A stretch of 5,092 bases of DNA from a virus (lineage: Duplodnaviria > Heunggongvirae > Uroviricota > Caudoviricetes). The notes beneath the pieces were generated by a model. It saw nothing but the letters and a program-made list of their open reading frames with translations. It was not told where the DNA came from and did no database searches. A program made the translations under genes and the position numbers. The stretch covers positions 1 through 5,092 of IMG/VR virus record IMGVR_UViG_3300018477_000019. One strand, 5' to 3'. How positions within the stretch are numbered: position 1 is the stretch's first letter; every line of letters begins with the position of its first letter. Shown one piece after another: positions 1-5,092 of the stretch.

Positions 1-50
1 CATACGAGATACATCGGTGACTGGAGTTCAGACGTGTGCTCTTCCGATCT
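1..50. other. Illumina TruSeq indexed adapter (synthetic, non-biological) at contig terminus
   Basis: Positions 1-50 read CATACGAGAT-ACATCG-GTGACTGGAGTTCAGACGTGTGCTCTTCCGATCT, i.e. the 3' part of the TruSeq index adapter (…GGCATACGAGAT[index]GTGACTGGAGTTCAGACGTGTGCTCTTCCGATCT) with a 6-nt index ACATCG (reverse complement CGATGT). Recognised from memory of the adapter sequence; exact contiguous match over the whole fixed part. Confidence 0.93.
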
Positions 51-1026
51 CTTTCAGAACCGTCAGAACGGACCATTCAGCCTCGACACTATCGACCGAG
101 TTCAAAACGCTATCGCAAATCACGTAGTCGTAACGCCCTCGCGTTTTTAAGTCGTCCACCAGCGTATCAATCATTCGGTTTGTTGCAGCCCTATCCAGAG
201 TGTTTCCAGCGCCCTTACGGCGGAAAAGCTCGAGATCATGCAGGTTATATCCCTTTGCCCTGAGCATTCGCGCGTAGTCTCCCTGCCCCGAACCAAAATC
301 AATTCCTCTTGGCGTCTTGGCAATGATCGGGAGGATCAACGACTCATACAGATTTGATTTCAGGCTGCCACCATTACGCAACCGCATAAGCTGCGCATAC
401 GTCTGGATGTATGTTGTTTTCTCCAGATGAGAATACTCAAATACACCATAAGTTTTATTCAGATAACTTTGGTATTTTTCCTTCTCAACATCAGGGATCA
501 CAAACACCGTTAGCGGTGTGCGCGTCATTTTCGCTGCTAATGCATACTGAGCACAGTGAATAACCTCACCAGACTGAGTAGCAACACAACCACCCCACGG
601 ACCATACTTGATAACCAGTTCCGCTATGTTCTTTCGAACATATGCCATTTTCGCGCGCATATTGCCTGAGATCTGGCTTGCCGATACCTGAACAAAACCA
701 TGCTTATCTTCCAGACCGGACACCCTGCAACGCTCATCTCCGCTATCAAAATCCGTTCCGTTATGCAGTTGGTTAAACCGTACTTCGTCGTATACCGTCG
801 TTTCACAGGGCAACACATACACCGCAGCACGCGTTATTCCCAATTTACGTAGCGCCTTCGTCCTTTGGTGTCCCGCCACCAGCAAATCGCCGCGCACTAT
901 CAATGGCTTCACAAGCCCCAGCTCCCTGACGCTTTCCGCCAGCCTCGCAAGATCATCCTCACCGATAAAACGCGGGTTATATTCCGCGCCGCGTAGGTGC
1001 GTTATGTCGTAATTGAGGTGAAGCAT
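28..1026 (-). CDS. ParB/Srx-like N-terminal domain fused to a class I SAM-dependent methyltransferase-like domain; 3' end truncated/chimeric with adapter
   Basis: Minus-strand ORF (track 28..1032). N-terminal ParB-type motif (…LIVRGDLLVAGHQRTKALRKLGI…); C-terminal region has a Rossmann SAM-binding motif I (IDFGSGQGDY) and a downstream YDYVICDSVL segment. No (D/N)PP(Y/F/W) motif in the retained part. Likely start is ATG at 1026-1024, preceded by GGAGG about 8 nt upstream and overlapping the upstream stop (TGATG); an in-frame GTG at 1032 is the alternative. The last ~7 codons and the stop at 28-30 lie inside adapter sequence, so the true C-terminus is unknown. Confidence 0.8.
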   Translation of the reverse strand: MLHLNYDITHLRGAEYNPRFIGEDDLARLAESVRELGLVKPLIVRGDLLVAGHQRTKALRKLGITRAAVYVLPCETTVYDEVRFNQLHNGTDFDSGDERCRVSGLEDKHGFVQVSASQISGNMRAKMAYVRKNIAELVIKYGPWGGCVATQSGEVIHCAQYALAAKMTRTPLTVFVIPDVEKEKYQSYLNKTYGVFEYSHLEKTTYIQTYAQLMRLRNGGSLKSNLYESLILPIIAKTPRGIDFGSGQGDYARMLRAKGYNLHDLELFRRKGAGNTLDRAATNRMIDTLVDDLKTRGRYDYVICDSVLNSVDSVEAEWSVLTVLKEIGRAHV

Positions 1027-1649
1027 CAGCACACCTCCCCAGCCAGCAATGCGGATACAAATCCGATATAGCTGCCATTATCATCAACATAACGAGACAC
1101 CGCGCAGTCAAAACGATCCGCTTCCTCATCCGTTGCCGGGATTTTATGACCTCCAAATGACAGGTACTGAACTTTTACGCCTGATTTGGCCTCATCCTTC
1201 TCAAATGGGATATCCATACCTTCTGTGTCATCGTAGACCGCCACACTCAATAAGTTATCCAGTTCGCGCTGAGTAAAACCAATTGAGTCCAGAGCAAAAT
1301 CATCGGCCGCAAGATCTGCAAGCTCCGCGCTTAACAACTCTTCATCCCAACCAGCATTCAGCGGAATACGGTTGTCGGCCAGACGATATGCCTTCTTCTG
1401 ATTCTCCGTTAGCCCAGCCAGAACAATGCAGGGAACATCATCCATCCCCAACTGAGTGGCCGCAGCAATTCGACCATGACCAGCAATTACAACGTTGTTC
1501 TCGTCTATCAGGATCGGATTAGTCCATCCGTACTCCTGTATGCTGGCAACAATCTGATCTACCTGCTCCACGGAGTGTGTGCGAGCGTTCTTTTCATAAC
1601 CAATCAACACAGAAAGTGGTAAAGAAACCACATTAAGTTGTTTTGTCAT
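1026..1649 (-). CDS. ParB-like nuclease (ParB N-terminal/Srx) domain protein, 207 aa
   Basis: Minus-strand ORF with ATG at 1649-1647 and TGA at 1028-1026. Contains a ParB N-terminal domain signature (…NPILIDENNVVIAGHGRIAAATQLGMDDVPCIVL…) and an acidic C-terminal half. Its stop overlaps the start of the downstream ParB-methyltransferase gene (TGATG), indicating translational coupling. Confidence 0.8.
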   Translation of the reverse strand: MTKQLNVVSLPLSVLIGYEKNARTHSVEQVDQIVASIQEYGWTNPILIDENNVVIAGHGRIAAATQLGMDDVPCIVLAGLTENQKKAYRLADNRIPLNAGWDEELLSAELADLAADDFALDSIGFTQRELDNLLSVAVYDDTEGMDIPFEKDEAKSGVKVQYLSFGGHKIPATDEEADRFDCAVSRYVDDNGSYIGFVSALLAGEVC

Positions 1650-1792
1650 GCCGTTTATCCGCTAAAATCCCCTCGCTTGTGCAAGCAAGTGGGCCTCGGT
1701 TTGTATCCACGGCACCCTGTGGGTATGAATGACTGTCGTCAGGTCGCAACTGACGGCGGTCGCCCACCTTCCAGTAATAAAAAAGCCACCAG

Positions 1793-1822
1793 CATTAACT
1801 CCACAATGAGCTGGAGTTAATG
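1793..1822 (-). repeat. Perfect 11-bp inverted repeat with 8-nt spacer in the intergenic region downstream of the Tfa-like gene; candidate terminator hairpin or operator
   Basis: CATTAACTCCA (1793-1803) / TGGAGTTAATG (1812-1822) are exact reverse complements with spacer caatgagc. On the minus-strand transcript the hairpin is followed about 8 nt later by UUUUUUAUUA. It lies about 60 nt after the Tfa-like stop (1884) and about 145 nt before the ParB start (1649). Confidence 0.35.
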
Positions 1823-1883
1823 AGGCAGCTTTGGTTTGCGCATTATCGCAGCCCCTGATAAGCACAAGAGCTGCTGTAATGCG

Positions 1884-2597
1884 TTACTCTGGTATCAAAC
1901 AGATGTGGCCGTTATTTACCTCAATGCGAGAGTATCTCGGCTTACCATCCACGATTCCGGTAATGACAAGTTCGCCATCAGGCGACCATTCTTCTTTGTC
2001 GTCTTCAAGTACCGCGCCTTCTGGCAGATCAATACAGGCAAAAACAGGACAGCCAGGATGACGTTTATCCTCCATCGCAATCAGCATCGACTCACCGAAC
2101 CACTCTGTAGTAGCACGGCCATCAGCCGCCTGATAGTGAATCAGATACTGGTTTTCGCCATTTGCATACTGAGCACGGGCTTGAACTTCTCCCCATTCGT
2201 CACTGATACGCATTGTTACCAGTTGGGATAATTCAAACTTAAACGGAACAGACTCTGCACCAATAGATATCGGTGAGTTTTCTCGCTGCTCTGGACCTTC
2301 ACGCTTCACAATTTGAACATCTTTGACGAGCCAATCACCTGTGTTATCTACTTTTCGATACTCATCGGTATCAGGTAACTCAATAACACTCATCCCATCC
2401 GGGCAAAGCAACGATACATCTTTCGAAACACTGCGGATAATGCCGTTATTGTCATACATCATCTTTAAAGTGTGAGGCTGAAATTTCTTCTGCTCCTCAT
2501 ACCAATTTCTTCCGTCTTCAGTAAAAAGCGGTAGCACATCTGGATGTTTGCCGCGGGGATCAATAAGCGGCGCACTGATATTTTTTAAATGCATCAT
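1884..2597 (-). CDS. Tail fibre assembly (Tfa/gpG-like) N-terminal domain protein with a divergent, non-canonical C-terminal region (237 aa)
   Basis: Minus-strand ORF with tandem ATG at 2597/2594 and TAA at 1886-1884. The N-terminal ~105 aa (MMHLKNI…EDGRNWYEEQKKFQPHTLKMMYDNNGII…DTDEYRKVDNTGDWLVKDVQIVKR) matches, from memory, the conserved N-terminal region of enterobacterial prophage tail fibre assembly proteins. The C-terminal ~130 aa lacks the usual Tfa C-terminal W..Y..L..RVD-type motif. No tail fibre gene lies upstream. Confidence 0.78.
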   Translation of the reverse strand: MMHLKNISAPLIDPRGKHPDVLPLFTEDGRNWYEEQKKFQPHTLKMMYDNNGIIRSVSKDVSLLCPDGMSVIELPDTDEYRKVDNTGDWLVKDVQIVKREGPEQRENSPISIGAESVPFKFELSQLVTMRISDEWGEVQARAQYANGENQYLIHYQAADGRATTEWFGESMLIAMEDKRHPGCPVFACIDLPEGAVLEDDKEEWSPDGELVITGIVDGKPRYSRIEVNNGHICLIPE

Positions 2598-2613
2598 ATA
2601 AATAACCCTACAT

Positions 2614-2778
2614 CTATCTCATTGACTTGAATGAAACGCACCCTGACCGCAATTGCTCCCGCTTACGCCGAAAAGCTCTCTGCGCCACTAAGATGCGCCA
2701 CAGGACACCAGCAATAACCACCAGCGAGATACAAAAACACACGGCCACAACCATCAGAAAAATGCCAACACCATTCAT
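2614..2778 (-). CDS. Small membrane peptide, 54 aa (one predicted TM helix plus basic C-terminal tail); not in the supplied ORF track
   Basis: Manual translation of the minus strand from ATG 2778-2776 to TAG 2616-2614 gives MNGVGIFLMVVAVCFCISLVVIAGVLWRILVAQRAFRRKREQLRSGCVSFKSMR. The ATG overlaps the TGA of the upstream 68-aa ORF (ATGA), and the stop lies 16 nt before the Tfa-like start. An alternative in-frame ATG at 2790 would add MDSF. Weak Shine-Dalgarno only. Confidence 0.4.
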   Translation of the reverse strand: MNGVGIFLMVVAVCFCISLVVIAGVLWRILVAQRAFRRKREQLRSGCVSFKSMR

Positions 2779-2981
2779 GAAACTATCCATTCTTCAATGA
2801 ATATCTCCAGTAATGTCAAGAGATACGCCGTCCCCAGCGCGGTTCCTACCGATATAGCTAAAACAAACCTCAAAGATAACGAGGTGTCTTTCGCTTTTCT
2901 CCAGACGTAAGCGCCAGCCAGAAATACCAACAAATCTCTTATTGGAAGCGGAAACCAGAACAAATCACTCGGCAAGTCCAC
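2775..2981 (-). CDS. Small hydrophobic protein, 68 aa, two predicted TM segments; GTG start
   Basis: Minus-strand ORF starting at GTG (2981-2979), 2 nt after the TAA of the 151-aa gene, with a purine-rich GGAAGGA about 7 nt upstream; stop TGA at 2777-2775. Product MDLPSDLFWFPLPIRDLLVFLAGAYVWRKAKDTSLSLRFVLAISVGTALGTAYLLTLLEIFIEEWIVS has two hydrophobic stretches and no internal Met. Tight packing with flanking genes supports it, but the non-ATG start lowers confidence. Confidence 0.4.
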   Translation of the reverse strand: MDLPSDLFWFPLPIRDLLVFLAGAYVWRKAKDTSLSLRFVLAISVGTALGTAYLLTLLEIFIEEWIVS

Positions 2982-2983
2982 GG

Positions 2984-3439
2984 TTATATCCTTCCATTCA
3001 TTTTTATCGGATGACCAGATAGCCTTACGCAGTTGAGCTGTAAAGCTCCGGTATCAACTAAATAATCAACTAACATGATTAGAGATTCATATTCAGCCAG
3101 ATAGCTAACCTGACGCATTCGACCGCCGTTGTTCTCCAGAATGTCGGCCACCTTTGCAGCCAACTCGCTTAGACAGGAGAACTTATTCCCATATATCGTT
3201 TTATACTCGCGCTTCTGGCATTCTTCGGCTTGCGGCTGGTTATCGAGAGCTATCAGCGACCGATAACTATCAAGGAAGTCCACAATCTCATTCAGGCACT
3301 CTTTGGCTGCCTCATCGTGACTTTTTCCGTATGCTTCATGGAGGACTTTCATCCTCATCATTGCTCCGTCACACATAATCGAAAGCGCGTAAAGCACATC
3401 ACTAATCGCCATTTCTTTTTTGGTGCTTGTCGAAGGCAT
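2984..3439 (-). CDS. Hypothetical protein, 151 aa, probably cytoplasmic and helical; no recognised family
   Basis: Minus-strand ORF with ATG at 3439-3437 preceded by a strong Shine-Dalgarno (AAAGGAGAAC-ATG); stop TAA at 2986-2984. It sits immediately downstream of an intrinsic terminator, so it opens a transcription unit or is reached by read-through. No motif I could assign. Confidence 0.7.
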   Translation of the reverse strand: MPSTSTKKEMAISDVLYALSIMCDGAMMRMKVLHEAYGKSHDEAAKECLNEIVDFLDSYRSLIALDNQPQAEECQKREYKTIYGNKFSCLSELAAKVADILENNGGRMRQVSYLAEYESLIMLVDYLVDTGALQLNCVRLSGHPIKMNGRI

Positions 3440-3464
3440 CCCATGTTCTCCTTTGTCTGGATGT

Positions 3465-3490
3465 AAAAAAGCCCCGGCAATTGCCGAGGC
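3465..3490 (-). terminator. Rho-independent terminator after the 89/65-aa gene pair
   Basis: Minus-strand RNA GCCUCGGC-AAUU-GCCGGGGC followed by UUUUUU: an 8-bp GC-rich stem (7 Watson-Crick pairs plus one G-U), 4-nt loop and 6-U tract, beginning 24 nt after the TAA (3516-3514) of the 65-aa gene. Confidence 0.65.
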
Positions 3491-3513
3491 TCGTTGTTCG
3501 TTATCGTTACGGT

Positions 3514-3711
3514 TTAATGCTCGCGTCGTCCGGCGACAACTTCGGATTTGTATTTCAGGTCGCCCAGCAAGAATTGCAGTTTAAGCATCTTTGCCGCCGT
3601 GTAGTTCCCTGATTCCACAACCTCTTTCATGAGGTCATAAACGGCCGCTACATCATCAGCCAGGAACTCTTTGCGTTGCTGCTCAGTCGCACGTTTGAAG
3701 GAAATACGCAT
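3514..3711 (-). CDS. Hypothetical small protein, 65 aa (66 aa if started at GTG 3714)
   Basis: Minus-strand ORF with ATG at 3711-3709 overlapping the TGA of the upstream 89-aa gene by 1 nt (TGATG); stop TAA at 3516-3514, followed by the intrinsic terminator. Product MRISFKRATEQQRKEFLADDVAAVYDLMKEVVESGNYTAAKMLKLQFLLGDLKYKSEVVAGRREH looks helical and charged; no family assigned. Confidence 0.62.
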   Translation of the reverse strand: MRISFKRATEQQRKEFLADDVAAVYDLMKEVVESGNYTAAKMLKLQFLLGDLKYKSEVVAGRREH

Positions 3712-3980
3712 CACTCATCATCTCCTGCCGCACATACAACCTCACAAAAAACATCAGCGGAATGTTTCTCCTTGAACGAATGACGCTCAAAACCGCACTC
3801 AATATCAGGCGCAAAAACATCCACCACATACGGTCTTTCAGAATGTTTGTTTTCCCAACGATAAACCGTAGTGACGTTGAAATGTTTTAACGCTTCACGG
3901 AACTCAACGCTGCCAGTCAGGTTTTTTGAGGTCAGGTATTGCAGGAGGTTTTTTACTACTTCACGGTCTTGTACTTTCAT
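3711..3980 (-). CDS. Hypothetical small protein, 89 aa, acidic C-terminus
   Basis: Minus-strand ORF with ATG at 3980-3978 preceded by GGAGA about 8 nt upstream; stop TGA at 3713-3711. Product MKVQDREVVKNLLQYLTSKNLTGSVEFREALKHFNV…CAAGDDE. First gene of a two-gene unit with the 65-aa ORF. Confidence 0.7.
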   Translation of the reverse strand: MKVQDREVVKNLLQYLTSKNLTGSVEFREALKHFNVTTVYRWENKHSERPYVVDVFAPDIECGFERHSFKEKHSADVFCEVVCAAGDDE

Positions 3981-4024
3981 CGGGTTATCTCCGGTTTAAC
4001 CAGGGCGGGTATCGCTCGGTTTCG

Positions 4025-4062
4025 GTTATAACCTTAGGAAATTTTTTCCCACCTGTAAAGCA
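4025..4062 (-). promoter_or_regulatory. Candidate sigma70-type promoter for the 89/65-aa operon
   Basis: On the minus strand, TTTACA (plus 4059-4054), a 17-nt spacer, then TAAGGT (plus 4036-4031), about 50 nt upstream of the ATG at 3980 in a 112-bp AT-rich intergenic region. The -10 is a weak match; a consensus TATAAT also occurs within the palindrome at 4081-4092 without a good -35. Sequence inspection only. Confidence 0.25.
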
Positions 4063-4092
4063 CTTTTTATATAAATCTATAATTATATAATT

Positions 4093-4680
4093 CTATGACA
4101 CTTGCCAGAGAGCATCATGCAACTGGATACCTCCGTTGCACTGGTTGCCCCAGCCATGCCAGCCATCAGGTAAATCACCGCGAGCAAACAGCTCAATACG
4201 AGGAACATCACCTAACAGTCTTACCAGCTTGTCACGAACCACATCAGGCTTCCGTGAATGTTCCAGACGAGGCGATGTAAACGACTGAATGATCCCCGCA
4301 TCAAGGCGAGTCGGCAGTTTGCCTTTTACCGCAAACAAGCAATCTTCACTGTTCGCACGAGTCATATGCCCCATCCCCATCACCAGCTTATCTGGCTGTC
4401 GGCTACCACATTTGTTCCATGTGAAGCCCTTCATGGTCATCAGCCTGAATCCCCATGCTTTCACCACCAGCAACGCTTCTTCTGGCTGAGTCGGAACCCA
4501 CCACATGGCCAACAAACACGATTCAGGATTAGCAAGCTGCCAGACAGGAATACGAGCAATCTCCTCAGCTTTCATCGTTGGATACTTAAAACCAGCTCCA
4601 CGATTCCCATCCTTACACTTGTCTTTGTATTCCCAGGGGGGATCTGCATAAATCAGATTAAACAATGCAATTGCCTCCAT
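4093..4680 (-). CDS. MT-A70-family N6-adenine DNA methyltransferase (phage-type orphan Dam-like methylase), 195 aa
   Basis: Minus-strand ORF with ATG at 4680-4678 (GGAGG about 10 nt upstream) and TAG at 4095-4093. N-terminal catalytic DPPW motif (LIYADPPWEY) and downstream EHSRKP and ELFAR segments typical of MT-A70-type adenine methyltransferases. No adjacent restriction endonuclease gene. Confidence 0.88.
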   Translation of the reverse strand: MEAIALFNLIYADPPWEYKDKCKDGNRGAGFKYPTMKAEEIARIPVWQLANPESCLLAMWWVPTQPEEALLVVKAWGFRLMTMKGFTWNKCGSRQPDKLVMGMGHMTRANSEDCLFAVKGKLPTRLDAGIIQSFTSPRLEHSRKPDVVRDKLVRLLGDVPRIELFARGDLPDGWHGWGNQCNGGIQLHDALWQVS

Positions 4681-4988
4681 GTTAGTTGTGCCTCCGGCGC
4701 TTATCTCCGGCAGTCATAACGCTGGCCAGCTCTACAGCAAACACAACGAAAAGGGCACTAACCAGACTGATTAATGCCCTTGCCTGTTGTGTGCCGGATA
4801 TCGCCAGACAACGCTGTTTTGGTAACACGGCTACAGTTCCGCGCCGCTCCAGCTTTTACCCCTTTGCGGATAACAGGCCCTGCCTGTAACTTAGCCCCAC
4901 GTTCGCCCGAAATGCGCACCAGGCACGCATAAAGATGAGCACGAAGGAAGTAACTCCACCGCGCTTATCTTTATGTGTGAGAGTGAAT

Positions 4989-5064
4989 TGGTGGCCCCTA
5001 CCGGATTTGAACCGATGACCGTGCGATTATGAGTCGCCTGCTCTAACCACTGAGCTAAGGGGCC
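4989..5064 (-). tRNA. tRNA with CAU anticodon; acceptor stem and D-arm resemble tRNA-Ile2 (lysidine, ileX-like) rather than tRNA-Met
   Basis: Reverse complement of 4989-5064 is GGCCCCTTAGCTCAGTGGTTAGAGCAGGCGACTCATAATCGCACGGTCATCGGTTCAAATCCGGTAGGGGCCACCA (76 nt). It folds as a cloverleaf: 7-bp acceptor stem, 4-bp D stem, anticodon loop CTCATAA, T stem ATCGG/CCGGT, T loop TTCAAAT, encoded CCA. The 5' ~43 nt match my memory of enterobacterial ileX; the variable loop and T stem differ with compensatory pairing. Confidence 0.85.
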
Positions 5065-5092
5065 ATATTTGATCTGTTTGTCTGATGTGGCG

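Follow-up and report, generated by a model that had tools for sequence, protein, structure and literature searches.

A coupled pair of small genes behind a repeated cassette in an Enterobacterales phage-plasmid resembles an establishment or counter-defence unit more than a toxin-antitoxin pair

Phage genomes reportedly contain morons, which Hendrix and colleagues are said to have defined as autonomous insertions of a promoter, an open reading frame (ORF), and a terminator between phage genes. Dispersed operator regulons are represented by the C1-controlled operators of P1, korA/korB of IncP plasmids, and omega of pSM19035. The leading regions of conjugative plasmids contain anti-defence islands that are enriched for orphan methylases together with many uncharacterised families (Samuel et al. 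2024, PMC11541004). The 5,092-nt stretch of viral DNA analysed here, which we call the window (IMG/VR record IMGVR_UViG_3300018477_000019, positions 1 to 5,092), contains two small overlapping genes, A and B, that have features of each of these systems. We report that A and B form a genuine, translationally coupled unit of a phage-plasmid, and we suggest that this unit may be an accessory operon used when the element enters a new host.

Bases 51-5092 of the window are 99.9% identical to p48, a circular plasmid of 48.8 kb from Escherichia coli strain 1428 (NZ_CP023368.1). This plasmid encodes RepA, ParA, a RelE/helix-turn-helix (HTH) pair, and a CI-like repressor (HTH and S24 peptidase). It also encodes the full set of a myovirus with a contractile tail: holins, endolysin, terminase, portal, capsid, sheath, tube, baseplate, and invertible tail fibres. 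No relaxase gene or origin of transfer (oriT) was found in p48. Since replicon and partition genes occur together with a full myovirus gene set, the source of the window is, on its gene content, a ~48-kb phage-plasmid of the myovirus type (P2-tail type) from Enterobacterales. The element matched 74 of 5426 complete E. coli genomes (~1.4%), and 214 of the 217 matching places were plasmid-borne. Beyond E. coli, it ranges over Salmonella, Klebsiella, Hafnia, and Yokenella, and the plaque-isolated Yersinia phages vB_YpM_39, vB_YpM_41, and vB_YpM_44 also match the window. The element does not belong to the pSLy3 group, as pSLy3 is part of the SSU5 supergroup. Literature searches with the accessions, the PHROG identifiers, the phage names, and phage-plasmid combined with MT-A70 found no characterisation, and to our knowledge the establishment of these ~48-kb phage-plasmids in new hosts is unstudied.

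Every gene in the window is on the minus strand. Read on that strand, the junction between A and B is ...GAT GAT GAG TGA TG C..., in which the stop codon of A (TGA, 3713-3711) and the start codon of B (ATG, 3711-3709) have one base in common (TGATG). The list of ORFs gives B as 3514-3714(-), which is 66 aa long with a GTG start, or 65 aa long if the ATG at 3711 is taken as the start, and the RefSeq annotation of p48 has the identical two coding sequences. An earlier reading of this DNA, made from the sequence only, had claimed two small genes overlapping by one nucleotide, and this is borne out by the ORF list, the junction, and the RefSeq coding sequences alike. We compared the pair with two diverged homologous loci, one on a metagenome contig (L004) and one in a Hafnia metagenome-assembled genome (L005). 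The Shine-Dalgarno (SD) sequence of B, which is located inside A (Table 1), is kept as GGGAG or GGAG in both, and the overlap in both is again 1 nt (TAATG). In the Salmonella plasmid pAR-0407-1 the overlap is 4 nt (ATGA); its proteins are ~42% (A) and ~35% (B) identical to those of the window, and its B-like ORF of 64 aa is unannotated. The ratio of nonsynonymous to synonymous substitution rates (dN/dS) against L004 and L005 was 0.17-0.43 for A and 0.05-0.23 for B, and the nonsynonymous proportion (pN) was far below the synonymous one (pS). By these comparisons, both genes are under purifying selection, with A evolving faster than either B or the sequence upstream of it. Within the phage-plasmid lineage the pair always directly follows the MT-A70 methylase gene, and all relatives examined retain it, apart from two Yersinia phages with a deletion of A and the disrupted forms described below. 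The base composition is not distinctive (43% GC for A, 50% for B, and 44.5% for the plasmid). Thus, judged from sequence conservation, A and B are real, translationally coupled, and co-conserved genes, and the two-gene unit is confirmed well beyond chance.

Natural variants show what the element can lose. In vB_YpM_41 and vB_YpM_44, a 245-bp deletion (window 3712-3956) takes out codons 9-89 of A and fuses the first eight codons of A in frame to the whole of B, leaving B intact and translated from the start of A. Both phages keep the MT-A70 methylase, and vB_YpM_39 has both A and B. Because vB_YpM_41 and vB_YpM_44 form plaques without codons 9-89 of A, plaque formation does not require A. Elsewhere, 1-base deletions at GATGTTTTTTG produce a 98-aa variant of A beside an intact B, and this variant is indexed in 39 blocks of the assembly collection; the frameshift hotspot is the T6 run at 3746-3751 with the adjacent G. 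A truncated B of 51 aa beside an intact A is indexed in 26 blocks. Such C-terminally altered forms of A or B may still be active.

The region 5' of the A start codon is not a private promoter. It spans from the stop codon of the MT-A70 gene to the ATG of A and is a block of ~112-121 bp that is present in three copies in p48: before A, before a DUF3560 gene, and before a 126-aa ORF. The three cassettes are near-identical and each reaches an ATG. Plasmid pAR-0407-1 also has three cassettes, at the same three positions and with ~90% nucleotide identity to the window copy, against protein identities of only ~42% for A and ~35% for B. The putative promoter core is identical in all three p48 copies, and relatives keep its geometry with a -10 of TATGGT and the palindrome TAGGAAAATATTTCCTA. 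The palindrome TAGGAAA-N3-TTTCCTA, which has one mismatch in the E. coli copies of the cassette, occurs at exactly four sites in each of two divergent plasmids, where 0.2 would be expected. The fourth and perfect site is at 1434-1450 of p48 (L003), before a 95-aa ORF (1481-1768) next to repA; in the second plasmid (L031) it is at 16340-16356, before the ORF 16387-16683. This ORF is 95-98 aa long across the two plasmids, has an HTH-like segment by eye, and matches the NCBIfam family "mobile mystery protein A" with E = 1e-4, under the cut-off. From this arrangement we infer that the cassette is a weak sigma-70 promoter with a 17-bp palindromic operator in its spacer and that the HTH-like ORF is a candidate autoregulated repressor of the cassettes. 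One operator, three target operons, and one candidate repressor would then make up a small regulon. The sequence-only reading had recognised a promoter-like region here, but it missed both the three-copy, operator-bearing cassette and the phage-plasmid nature of the element.

Immediately 5' of the -35, and starting inside the MT-A70 stop codon, is an AT-rich array of 8-bp units. The array motif TATAATTATAGATTTATATAA occurs 13 times in p48 (allowing up to 3 mismatches) against 0 expected; all occurrences are intergenic and include the parA promoter, and within the window the motif is confined to the array at 4064-4096. It may serve as an UP element or as an array of binding sites. Further arrays of AT-rich 8-bp units in p48 (L003) are at 7924-7952, 8632-8733, 13679-13699, and 18340-18376. 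These are found on both sides of the parA promoter, before the 82-aa gene that follows parA, before the operon at 13721, and upstream of the tRNA gene, and the layout of the parA promoter matches that of the cassette (array, TTTTCA, 17 bp, TATGCT). A partition or regulatory protein might use these arrays as common binding sites. A by-eye guess that the 82-aa gene encodes a ParG/omega-type ribbon-helix-helix protein had no Pfam or NCBIfam support and was dropped. The 5' leader of the cassette is invariant across eight copies from four lineages, except for loop bases and a few positions. Analysis with alifold found a small stem without covariation in the leader, and a structured regulatory RNA is unsupported beyond the 5' hairpin. 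As for the other genes behind the cassettes, tblastn showed that the 126-aa ORF is confined to this plasmid lineage bar one weak match in a Vibrio plasmid. DUF3560 is among the plasmid targets of CRISPR spacers, alongside parM, hok-sok, and a SAM methyltransferase (PMC6965323). In the Salmonella phage-plasmid L031, the cassette-driven DUF3560 gene is followed by a gene for a DGQHR (DndB-like) protein (28000-29058).

Downstream of B there is a hairpin with a 10-bp stem (7 G-C pairs), a 4-nt loop, and a T6 run. Its folding energy is -18.8 kcal/mol (z = -5.4), and 0 of 200 shuffled sequences folded as well. A hairpin with a T-run is found 3' of B in all four lineages examined, and in three of them the hairpin sequence differs. 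This conservation of position despite differing sequences argues for terminator function rather than chance, and the textbook rho-independent terminator described earlier stands. The ribosome-binding site and ATG of the next gene, which encodes 151 aa (start 3439), are ~25 nt past the T-run, and a consensus scan found no promoter between the two; the downstream genes therefore probably need read-through of the A-B terminator. The unit had been called self-contained. This holds for the presence of a cassette, A-B, and a terminator but less so for its boundary, since the 151-aa gene probably depends on read-through of its terminator. In L004, a hairpin homologous to the window terminator is directly 5' of the equivalent downstream gene. 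Between this second terminator and the one belonging to B in L004 are ~300 bp (~1260-1545) that are GC-rich and non-coding-looking; the window lacks this segment, in which Rfam found nothing.

Protein A is acidic (isoelectric point, pI, 5.5) and belongs to PHROG 6143, a family of unknown function. Its predicted fold is helix-helix-beta3-helix (alpha2-beta3-alpha), with a predicted local distance difference test score (pLDDT) of 84. Protein B is basic (pI 9.1), belongs to PHROG 6621, also of unknown function, and is predicted to form a two-helix hairpin (pLDDT 91) with only generic structural neighbours. Searches of Pfam, NCBIfam, PADLOC, and PDB sequences with A and B, both singly and as profiles, found nothing significant, in agreement with the earlier statement that neither protein is in a nameable family. 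An exhaustive profile search found 42 representative relatives of A. In many of these, the A domain is the N-terminus of a protein of 160-256 aa with one of several unrelated C-terminal extensions, and one relative has two A domains in tandem. The C-terminal extensions had no match in Pfam. Scans for the A domain found no relatives in genome contigs and one Pavtokvirus-like contig each in viral and metagenome collections. Members of the family are acidic throughout (pI 4.5-5.7, net charge -3 to -9), with a conserved Asp in the middle strand and a highly conserved two-helix N-terminus that is absent from AP2 or arm domains. None of 27 family members had a significant Pfam or NCBIfam hit, and neither these nor A or B belong by sequence to the ArdA, KlcA/ArdB, ArdC, or Ocr families. 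Assignment of A to an HTH_17/AlpA-like fold from a by-eye TTVYRW motif was rejected, because the Trp varies within the family and a beta strand is predicted for the segment. All copies of B that we found belong to this phage-plasmid lineage (E. coli, Salmonella, Klebsiella, Yokenella, Hafnia, and the Yersinia phages). The idea that B is a split-off form of the C-terminal domains of the long A relatives (a "Rosetta stone" relationship) was also rejected, with an hhalign probability of 0.7% and no blastp match.

The relatives of A are located in other kinds of mobile element as well. In the Serratia plasmid pKM0260a, a 94-aa homologue is in the leading region beside oriT and the relaxase gene. 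The genes there are on one strand in the order relaxase/mobA, DUF932, antirestriction, Hok, PsiA, DGQHR, DUF1281, two paralogues of ~255 aa, A, orphan N6 methylase, and ParM, with the methylase directly upstream of the A homologue. Also upstream of this homologue is a long-hairpin element of ~220 nt (z = -7.2 for the fold as single-stranded DNA, ssDNA). Six copies of it are present on one strand of the leading region (L034 29641-42324), where they precede DUF932, a hypothetical gene (30884-31306), the antirestriction gene, DGQHR-psiA, the N6 methylase, and the A homologue, and related copies occur in 89 plasmids. Likened by placement and fold, this element is probably a member of the Frpo-type family of ssDNA promoters; the Frpo promoters of leading-region anti-defence islands behave as it does (PMC11541004). 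The methylase-A module is found again in pR28_180. In the Salmonella plasmid pRSE40, the gene after A encodes a paralogue (242 aa) of the Serratia partner; an insertion sequence lies upstream, and there is no methylase. Among phages, the A-domain gene heads its cluster in PEp14, Stean, and Pavtok of Erwinia, and likewise in two Pavtokvirus-like contigs; the gene adjoins the divergent region between terminase and HTH genes, and the Erwinia phages have no methylase there. The ~250-aa paralogous family that follows the A homologue in conjugative plasmids (Table 1) matched nothing in Pfam and nothing at significance in NCBIfam. The DGQHR (DndB-like) protein of the Serratia leading region is encoded at L034 35257-36561, and DGQHR is common to this context and that of the phage-plasmid.

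The explanation that we tentatively favour, on genomic context only and with rather less than even confidence, is that A-B is a dispensable, operator-controlled moron for establishment or counter-defence that is located beside an orphan methylase. It would be an accessory operon of the phage-plasmid with the promoter, genes, and terminator of a moron. The three cassette-driven units (the 126-aa ORF, the DUF3560 operon, and A-B) would form one regulon that is derepressed when the DNA enters a repressor-free cell and damped once the plasmid is established. The products of A and B probably cooperate while the element establishes itself in a new host, and, as a weaker suggestion, acidic A and the basic helical hairpin of B may work jointly as a small complex. 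Such a complex would aid the incoming element, most likely by countering a nucleic-acid-targeting host defence such as restriction, alongside the neighbouring methylase, and would act by binding a host protein and not by catalysis. The sequence-only reading had listed an anti-defence cassette among its options, and the contexts of the A relatives now lend that option circumstantial support.

Several observations weigh against this explanation. A consensus sigma-70 scan of the minus strand found no site, with the cassette promoter below threshold, so that the AT-rich promoter region proposed earlier is supported by the repeated, conserved cassette and its TTTACA-17 bp-TAAGGT core but not by a consensus match; promoter activity, operator function, repressor identity, and expression timing are all putative. 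Neither A nor B matched known anti-defence proteins by homology or fold. The association with a methylase comes down to two independent modules, MT-A70 in the phage-plasmids and N6_Mtase in the Serratia plasmids, and is absent in pRSE40 and the Erwinia phages. Because loss or frameshift of A or B is common, selection on the pair is weak or conditional. Finally, elsewhere A pairs with unrelated proteins of ~250 aa or bears other C-terminal domains, and B is confined to the phage-plasmid lineage; for these reasons an obligate A-B complex is an assumption.

Among other explanations, two survive about equally, and we regard each as improbable. According to one, A and B are a small pair of transcription factors in which A binds DNA through a beta3-alpha domain like that of AP2 or integrase arms and B is a co-factor, acting on phage-plasmid or host genes or on their own cassette. 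Foldseek matched A to small integrase-like phage proteins (E ~0.02 and above), Arm-DNA-bind_4 of Pfam was matched by 2 of the 27 family members (E = 0.03), and by eye the family motif R-x-x-F-x-T-x-x-E-A-x-x-F-A is reminiscent of AP2/arm-binding domains. However, all of these scores are below significance, and the uniform acidity of the family and the conserved Asp in the middle strand sit poorly with DNA binding; the acidity also weakens the small-regulator option of the sequence-only reading. A is dispensable for plaques and so is not an essential early or late activator, and the HTH-like ORF behind the fourth palindrome is a better candidate for binding the operator.

According to the other, A-B is a lysogenic-conversion moron that protects the host, with resident expression excluding or aborting other phages or plasmids, either by superinfection exclusion or by a new defence function. 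The promoter-genes-terminator architecture within a block of phage genes would suit this role, the flanking accessory content varies among relatives, and genes for small membrane proteins are just downstream. Against it, PADLOC had no match, the leading regions and the cluster head in lytic Erwinia phages are places for entry or offence and not for host defence, and the putative operator within the promoter would point to repression once the plasmid is established.

It is less likely still that A and B are accessory factors that modulate the activity or specificity of the MT-A70 methylase. The constant position of A-B directly after MT-A70 in the phage-plasmid lineage, and of an A homologue directly after an unrelated N6 methylase in two Serratia plasmids, would agree with this. 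The two methylases are of different families, making a specific protein partnership unlikely; moreover, the promoter cassette in front of A-B is not that of the methylase, pRSE40 and the Pavtokvirus phages carry A with no methylase, and the phages lacking A retain theirs.

Least likely of all is a toxin-antitoxin or addiction module, in which the toxicity of one small protein is held in check by the other and the plasmid prophage is thereby stabilised: this architecture had been read from two small, tightly coupled genes, and an own promoter and terminator, a low-copy plasmid, and one acidic and one basic product agree with it, but no toxin or antitoxin family was matched in Pfam, NCBIfam, or PADLOC, a RelE/HTH pair is already present on the plasmid, A relatives are fused to or beside unrelated partners, and each partner occurs damaged or deleted beside an intact other (B kept without codons 9-89 of A in vB_YpM_41 and vB_YpM_44, frameshifted A with intact B in the 39 blocks, and intact A with the 51-aa B in the 26), which is hard to square with such a pair. 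A-B looks more like an establishment or counter-defence unit.

A broader and more speculative form of the favoured explanation, which we think rather unlikely as a whole, is that the A domain (~90 aa, alpha2-beta3-alpha, PHROG 6143) is an unrecognised counter-defence or establishment module common to phage-plasmids, conjugative leading regions, and lytic Pavtokvirus phages. The domain would be a target-binding head with interchangeable partners (the B hairpin, the ~250-aa proteins, or fused C-termini), and the three-operon "entry regulon" on duplicated cassettes would be the double-stranded DNA (dsDNA) counterpart of repeated Frpo promoters. If true, counteraction of host defence by the A domain would define a new family that links the counter-defence repertoires of phages, phage-plasmids, and conjugative plasmids and would give a function to one of the many uncharacterised families of leading regions. 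The regulon, if real, is a compact handle on the entry genes of a phage-plasmid, with one operator, one candidate repressor, and three operons. If neither holds, A-B is one more conserved hypothetical moron.

The order of genes and features in the window is tRNA, MT-A70, A, B, terminator, the 151-aa ORF, two small membrane ORFs, a Tfa-like ORF, and two ParB-like ORFs; coordinates of the features are in Table 1. Window bases 1-50 contain what we take to be an Illumina adapter (CATACGAGAT-ACATCG-GTGACTGGAGTTCAGACGTGTGCTCTTCCGATCT), and homology to p48 begins at base 51. For this reason, the ParB-methyltransferase ORF at 28-1032 is artificially truncated and ends in adapter-encoded residues; in p48 the protein is intact and 457 aa long. 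The tRNA, the only hit of an Rfam search of the window, sits between lysis genes and the methylase and is followed by a terminator-like hairpin at 4751-4781(-). Under the RefSeq call of tRNA-Ile, it is presumably of the lysidine-modified Ile2 type. Two overlapping small ORFs at 2775-2981(-) and 2614-2790(-), of 68 and 58 aa, have hydrophobic segments and are unannotated in RefSeq p48. Their homologues, found by by-eye translation of the Hafnia locus, have their own terminator and have the motifs FLAGAYVW.KAKD..LSLRFVL and W.RI.V.QR.F.RKREQL in common with the window ORFs. Both are probably real small membrane proteins. The 237-aa ORF at 1884-2597(-) has an N-terminal tail-fibre-assembly domain (Caudo_TAP/phrog_136) and a C-terminal domain of unknown function (phrog_1935); it is remote from the tail genes, and RefSeq splits it into a Tfa pseudogene and a separate ORF.

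Table 1. Coordinates of features in the window and of the ~250-aa proteins encoded next to A homologues elsewhere.
Feature	Position	Strand	Details	Basis
tRNA(CAT)	4989-5064	-	tRNA-Met in ARAGORN and Yersinia phage records; tRNA-Ile in RefSeq	ARAGORN, Yersinia phage records, RefSeq
MT-A70 methyltransferase (orphan)	4093-4680	-		
AT-rich array	4064-4096	-	~four 8-bp units (ATAGAATT ATATAATT ATAGATTT ATATAAAA)	motif search
Putative promoter core	4031-4059	-	-35 TTTACA 4054-4059, 17-bp spacer, -10 TAAGGT 4031-4036	
17-bp palindrome	4035-4051	-	TGGGAAAAAATTTCCTA; occupies the spacer and extends into the -10, in the manner of an operator	
5' leader	3981-4030	-	stem-loop ~3998-4021; SD GGAG 3989-3992 for gene A	
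Gene A	3711-3980	-	89 aa	
SD of gene B	3722-3726	-	AGGAG, within A codons G-D-D-E, 10 nt 5' of the B ATG	read from sequence
Gene B	3514-3711	-	65 aa	
Intrinsic terminator	3463-3492	-	GAGCCUCGGCAAUUGCCGGGGCUU and U-run	fold, shuffles
~250-aa family members	L011 5276-6043, 6606-7388; L014 5281-6009, 6331-7119; L013 5306-5641			

Among known systems, A-B is most readily compared with phage morons. Like these, it has its own inferred promoter, small ORFs, and an intrinsic terminator just before the next phage gene, and it is inserted between MT-A70 and the 151-aa gene in a unidirectional block. It is also dispensable, given the deletion of A in vB_YpM_41 and vB_YpM_44, and the accessory content around it is variable. 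Unlike morons, its base composition is not distinctive from that of the flanks, and its promoter is one of three conserved copies with a shared operator.

The anti-defence islands of leading regions (PMC11541004) are the second comparison. The A homologue of pKM0260a is inside such an island with an orphan methylase, an antirestriction gene, psiA, and hok; it is next to oriT, is co-oriented with the anti-defence genes, and has its own copy of the repeated long-hairpin element. The element of the window is not arranged in this way around an oriT, but it resembles the islands in that a repeated promoter cassette drives several small units of establishment type, including DUF3560. It differs in that the phage-plasmid has no oriT or relaxase and enters as dsDNA, and in that its repeat appears to be a conventional dsDNA promoter with an operator and not a long hairpin.

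With the dispersed operator regulons of P1, IncP plasmids, and pSM19035, p48 has in common one operator reused at several promoters, including that of the putative repressor beside the replicon, and AT-rich arrays of short repeats, which in p48 are shared with the parA promoter. It has no sequence similarity to the operators or regulators of the P1 C1, korA/korB, or omega systems, and in p48 the whole ~112-bp block of promoter, leader, and ribosome-binding site is duplicated and not just the operator. Type II toxin-antitoxin systems are like A-B in having two small adjacent genes with a stop/start overlap, one upstream cassette, and one terminator on a plasmid; A-B differs from them in having no recognised toxin or antitoxin family or fold and in that each gene is disrupted next to an intact partner, even if altered forms might retain function. 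To the AP2/integrase arm-type fold, A has sub-threshold scores, and its family is acidic and has the extra conserved two-helix N-terminus. Compared with acidic DNA mimics of the ArdA/Ocr type, the A family is mildly acidic, and B is basic.

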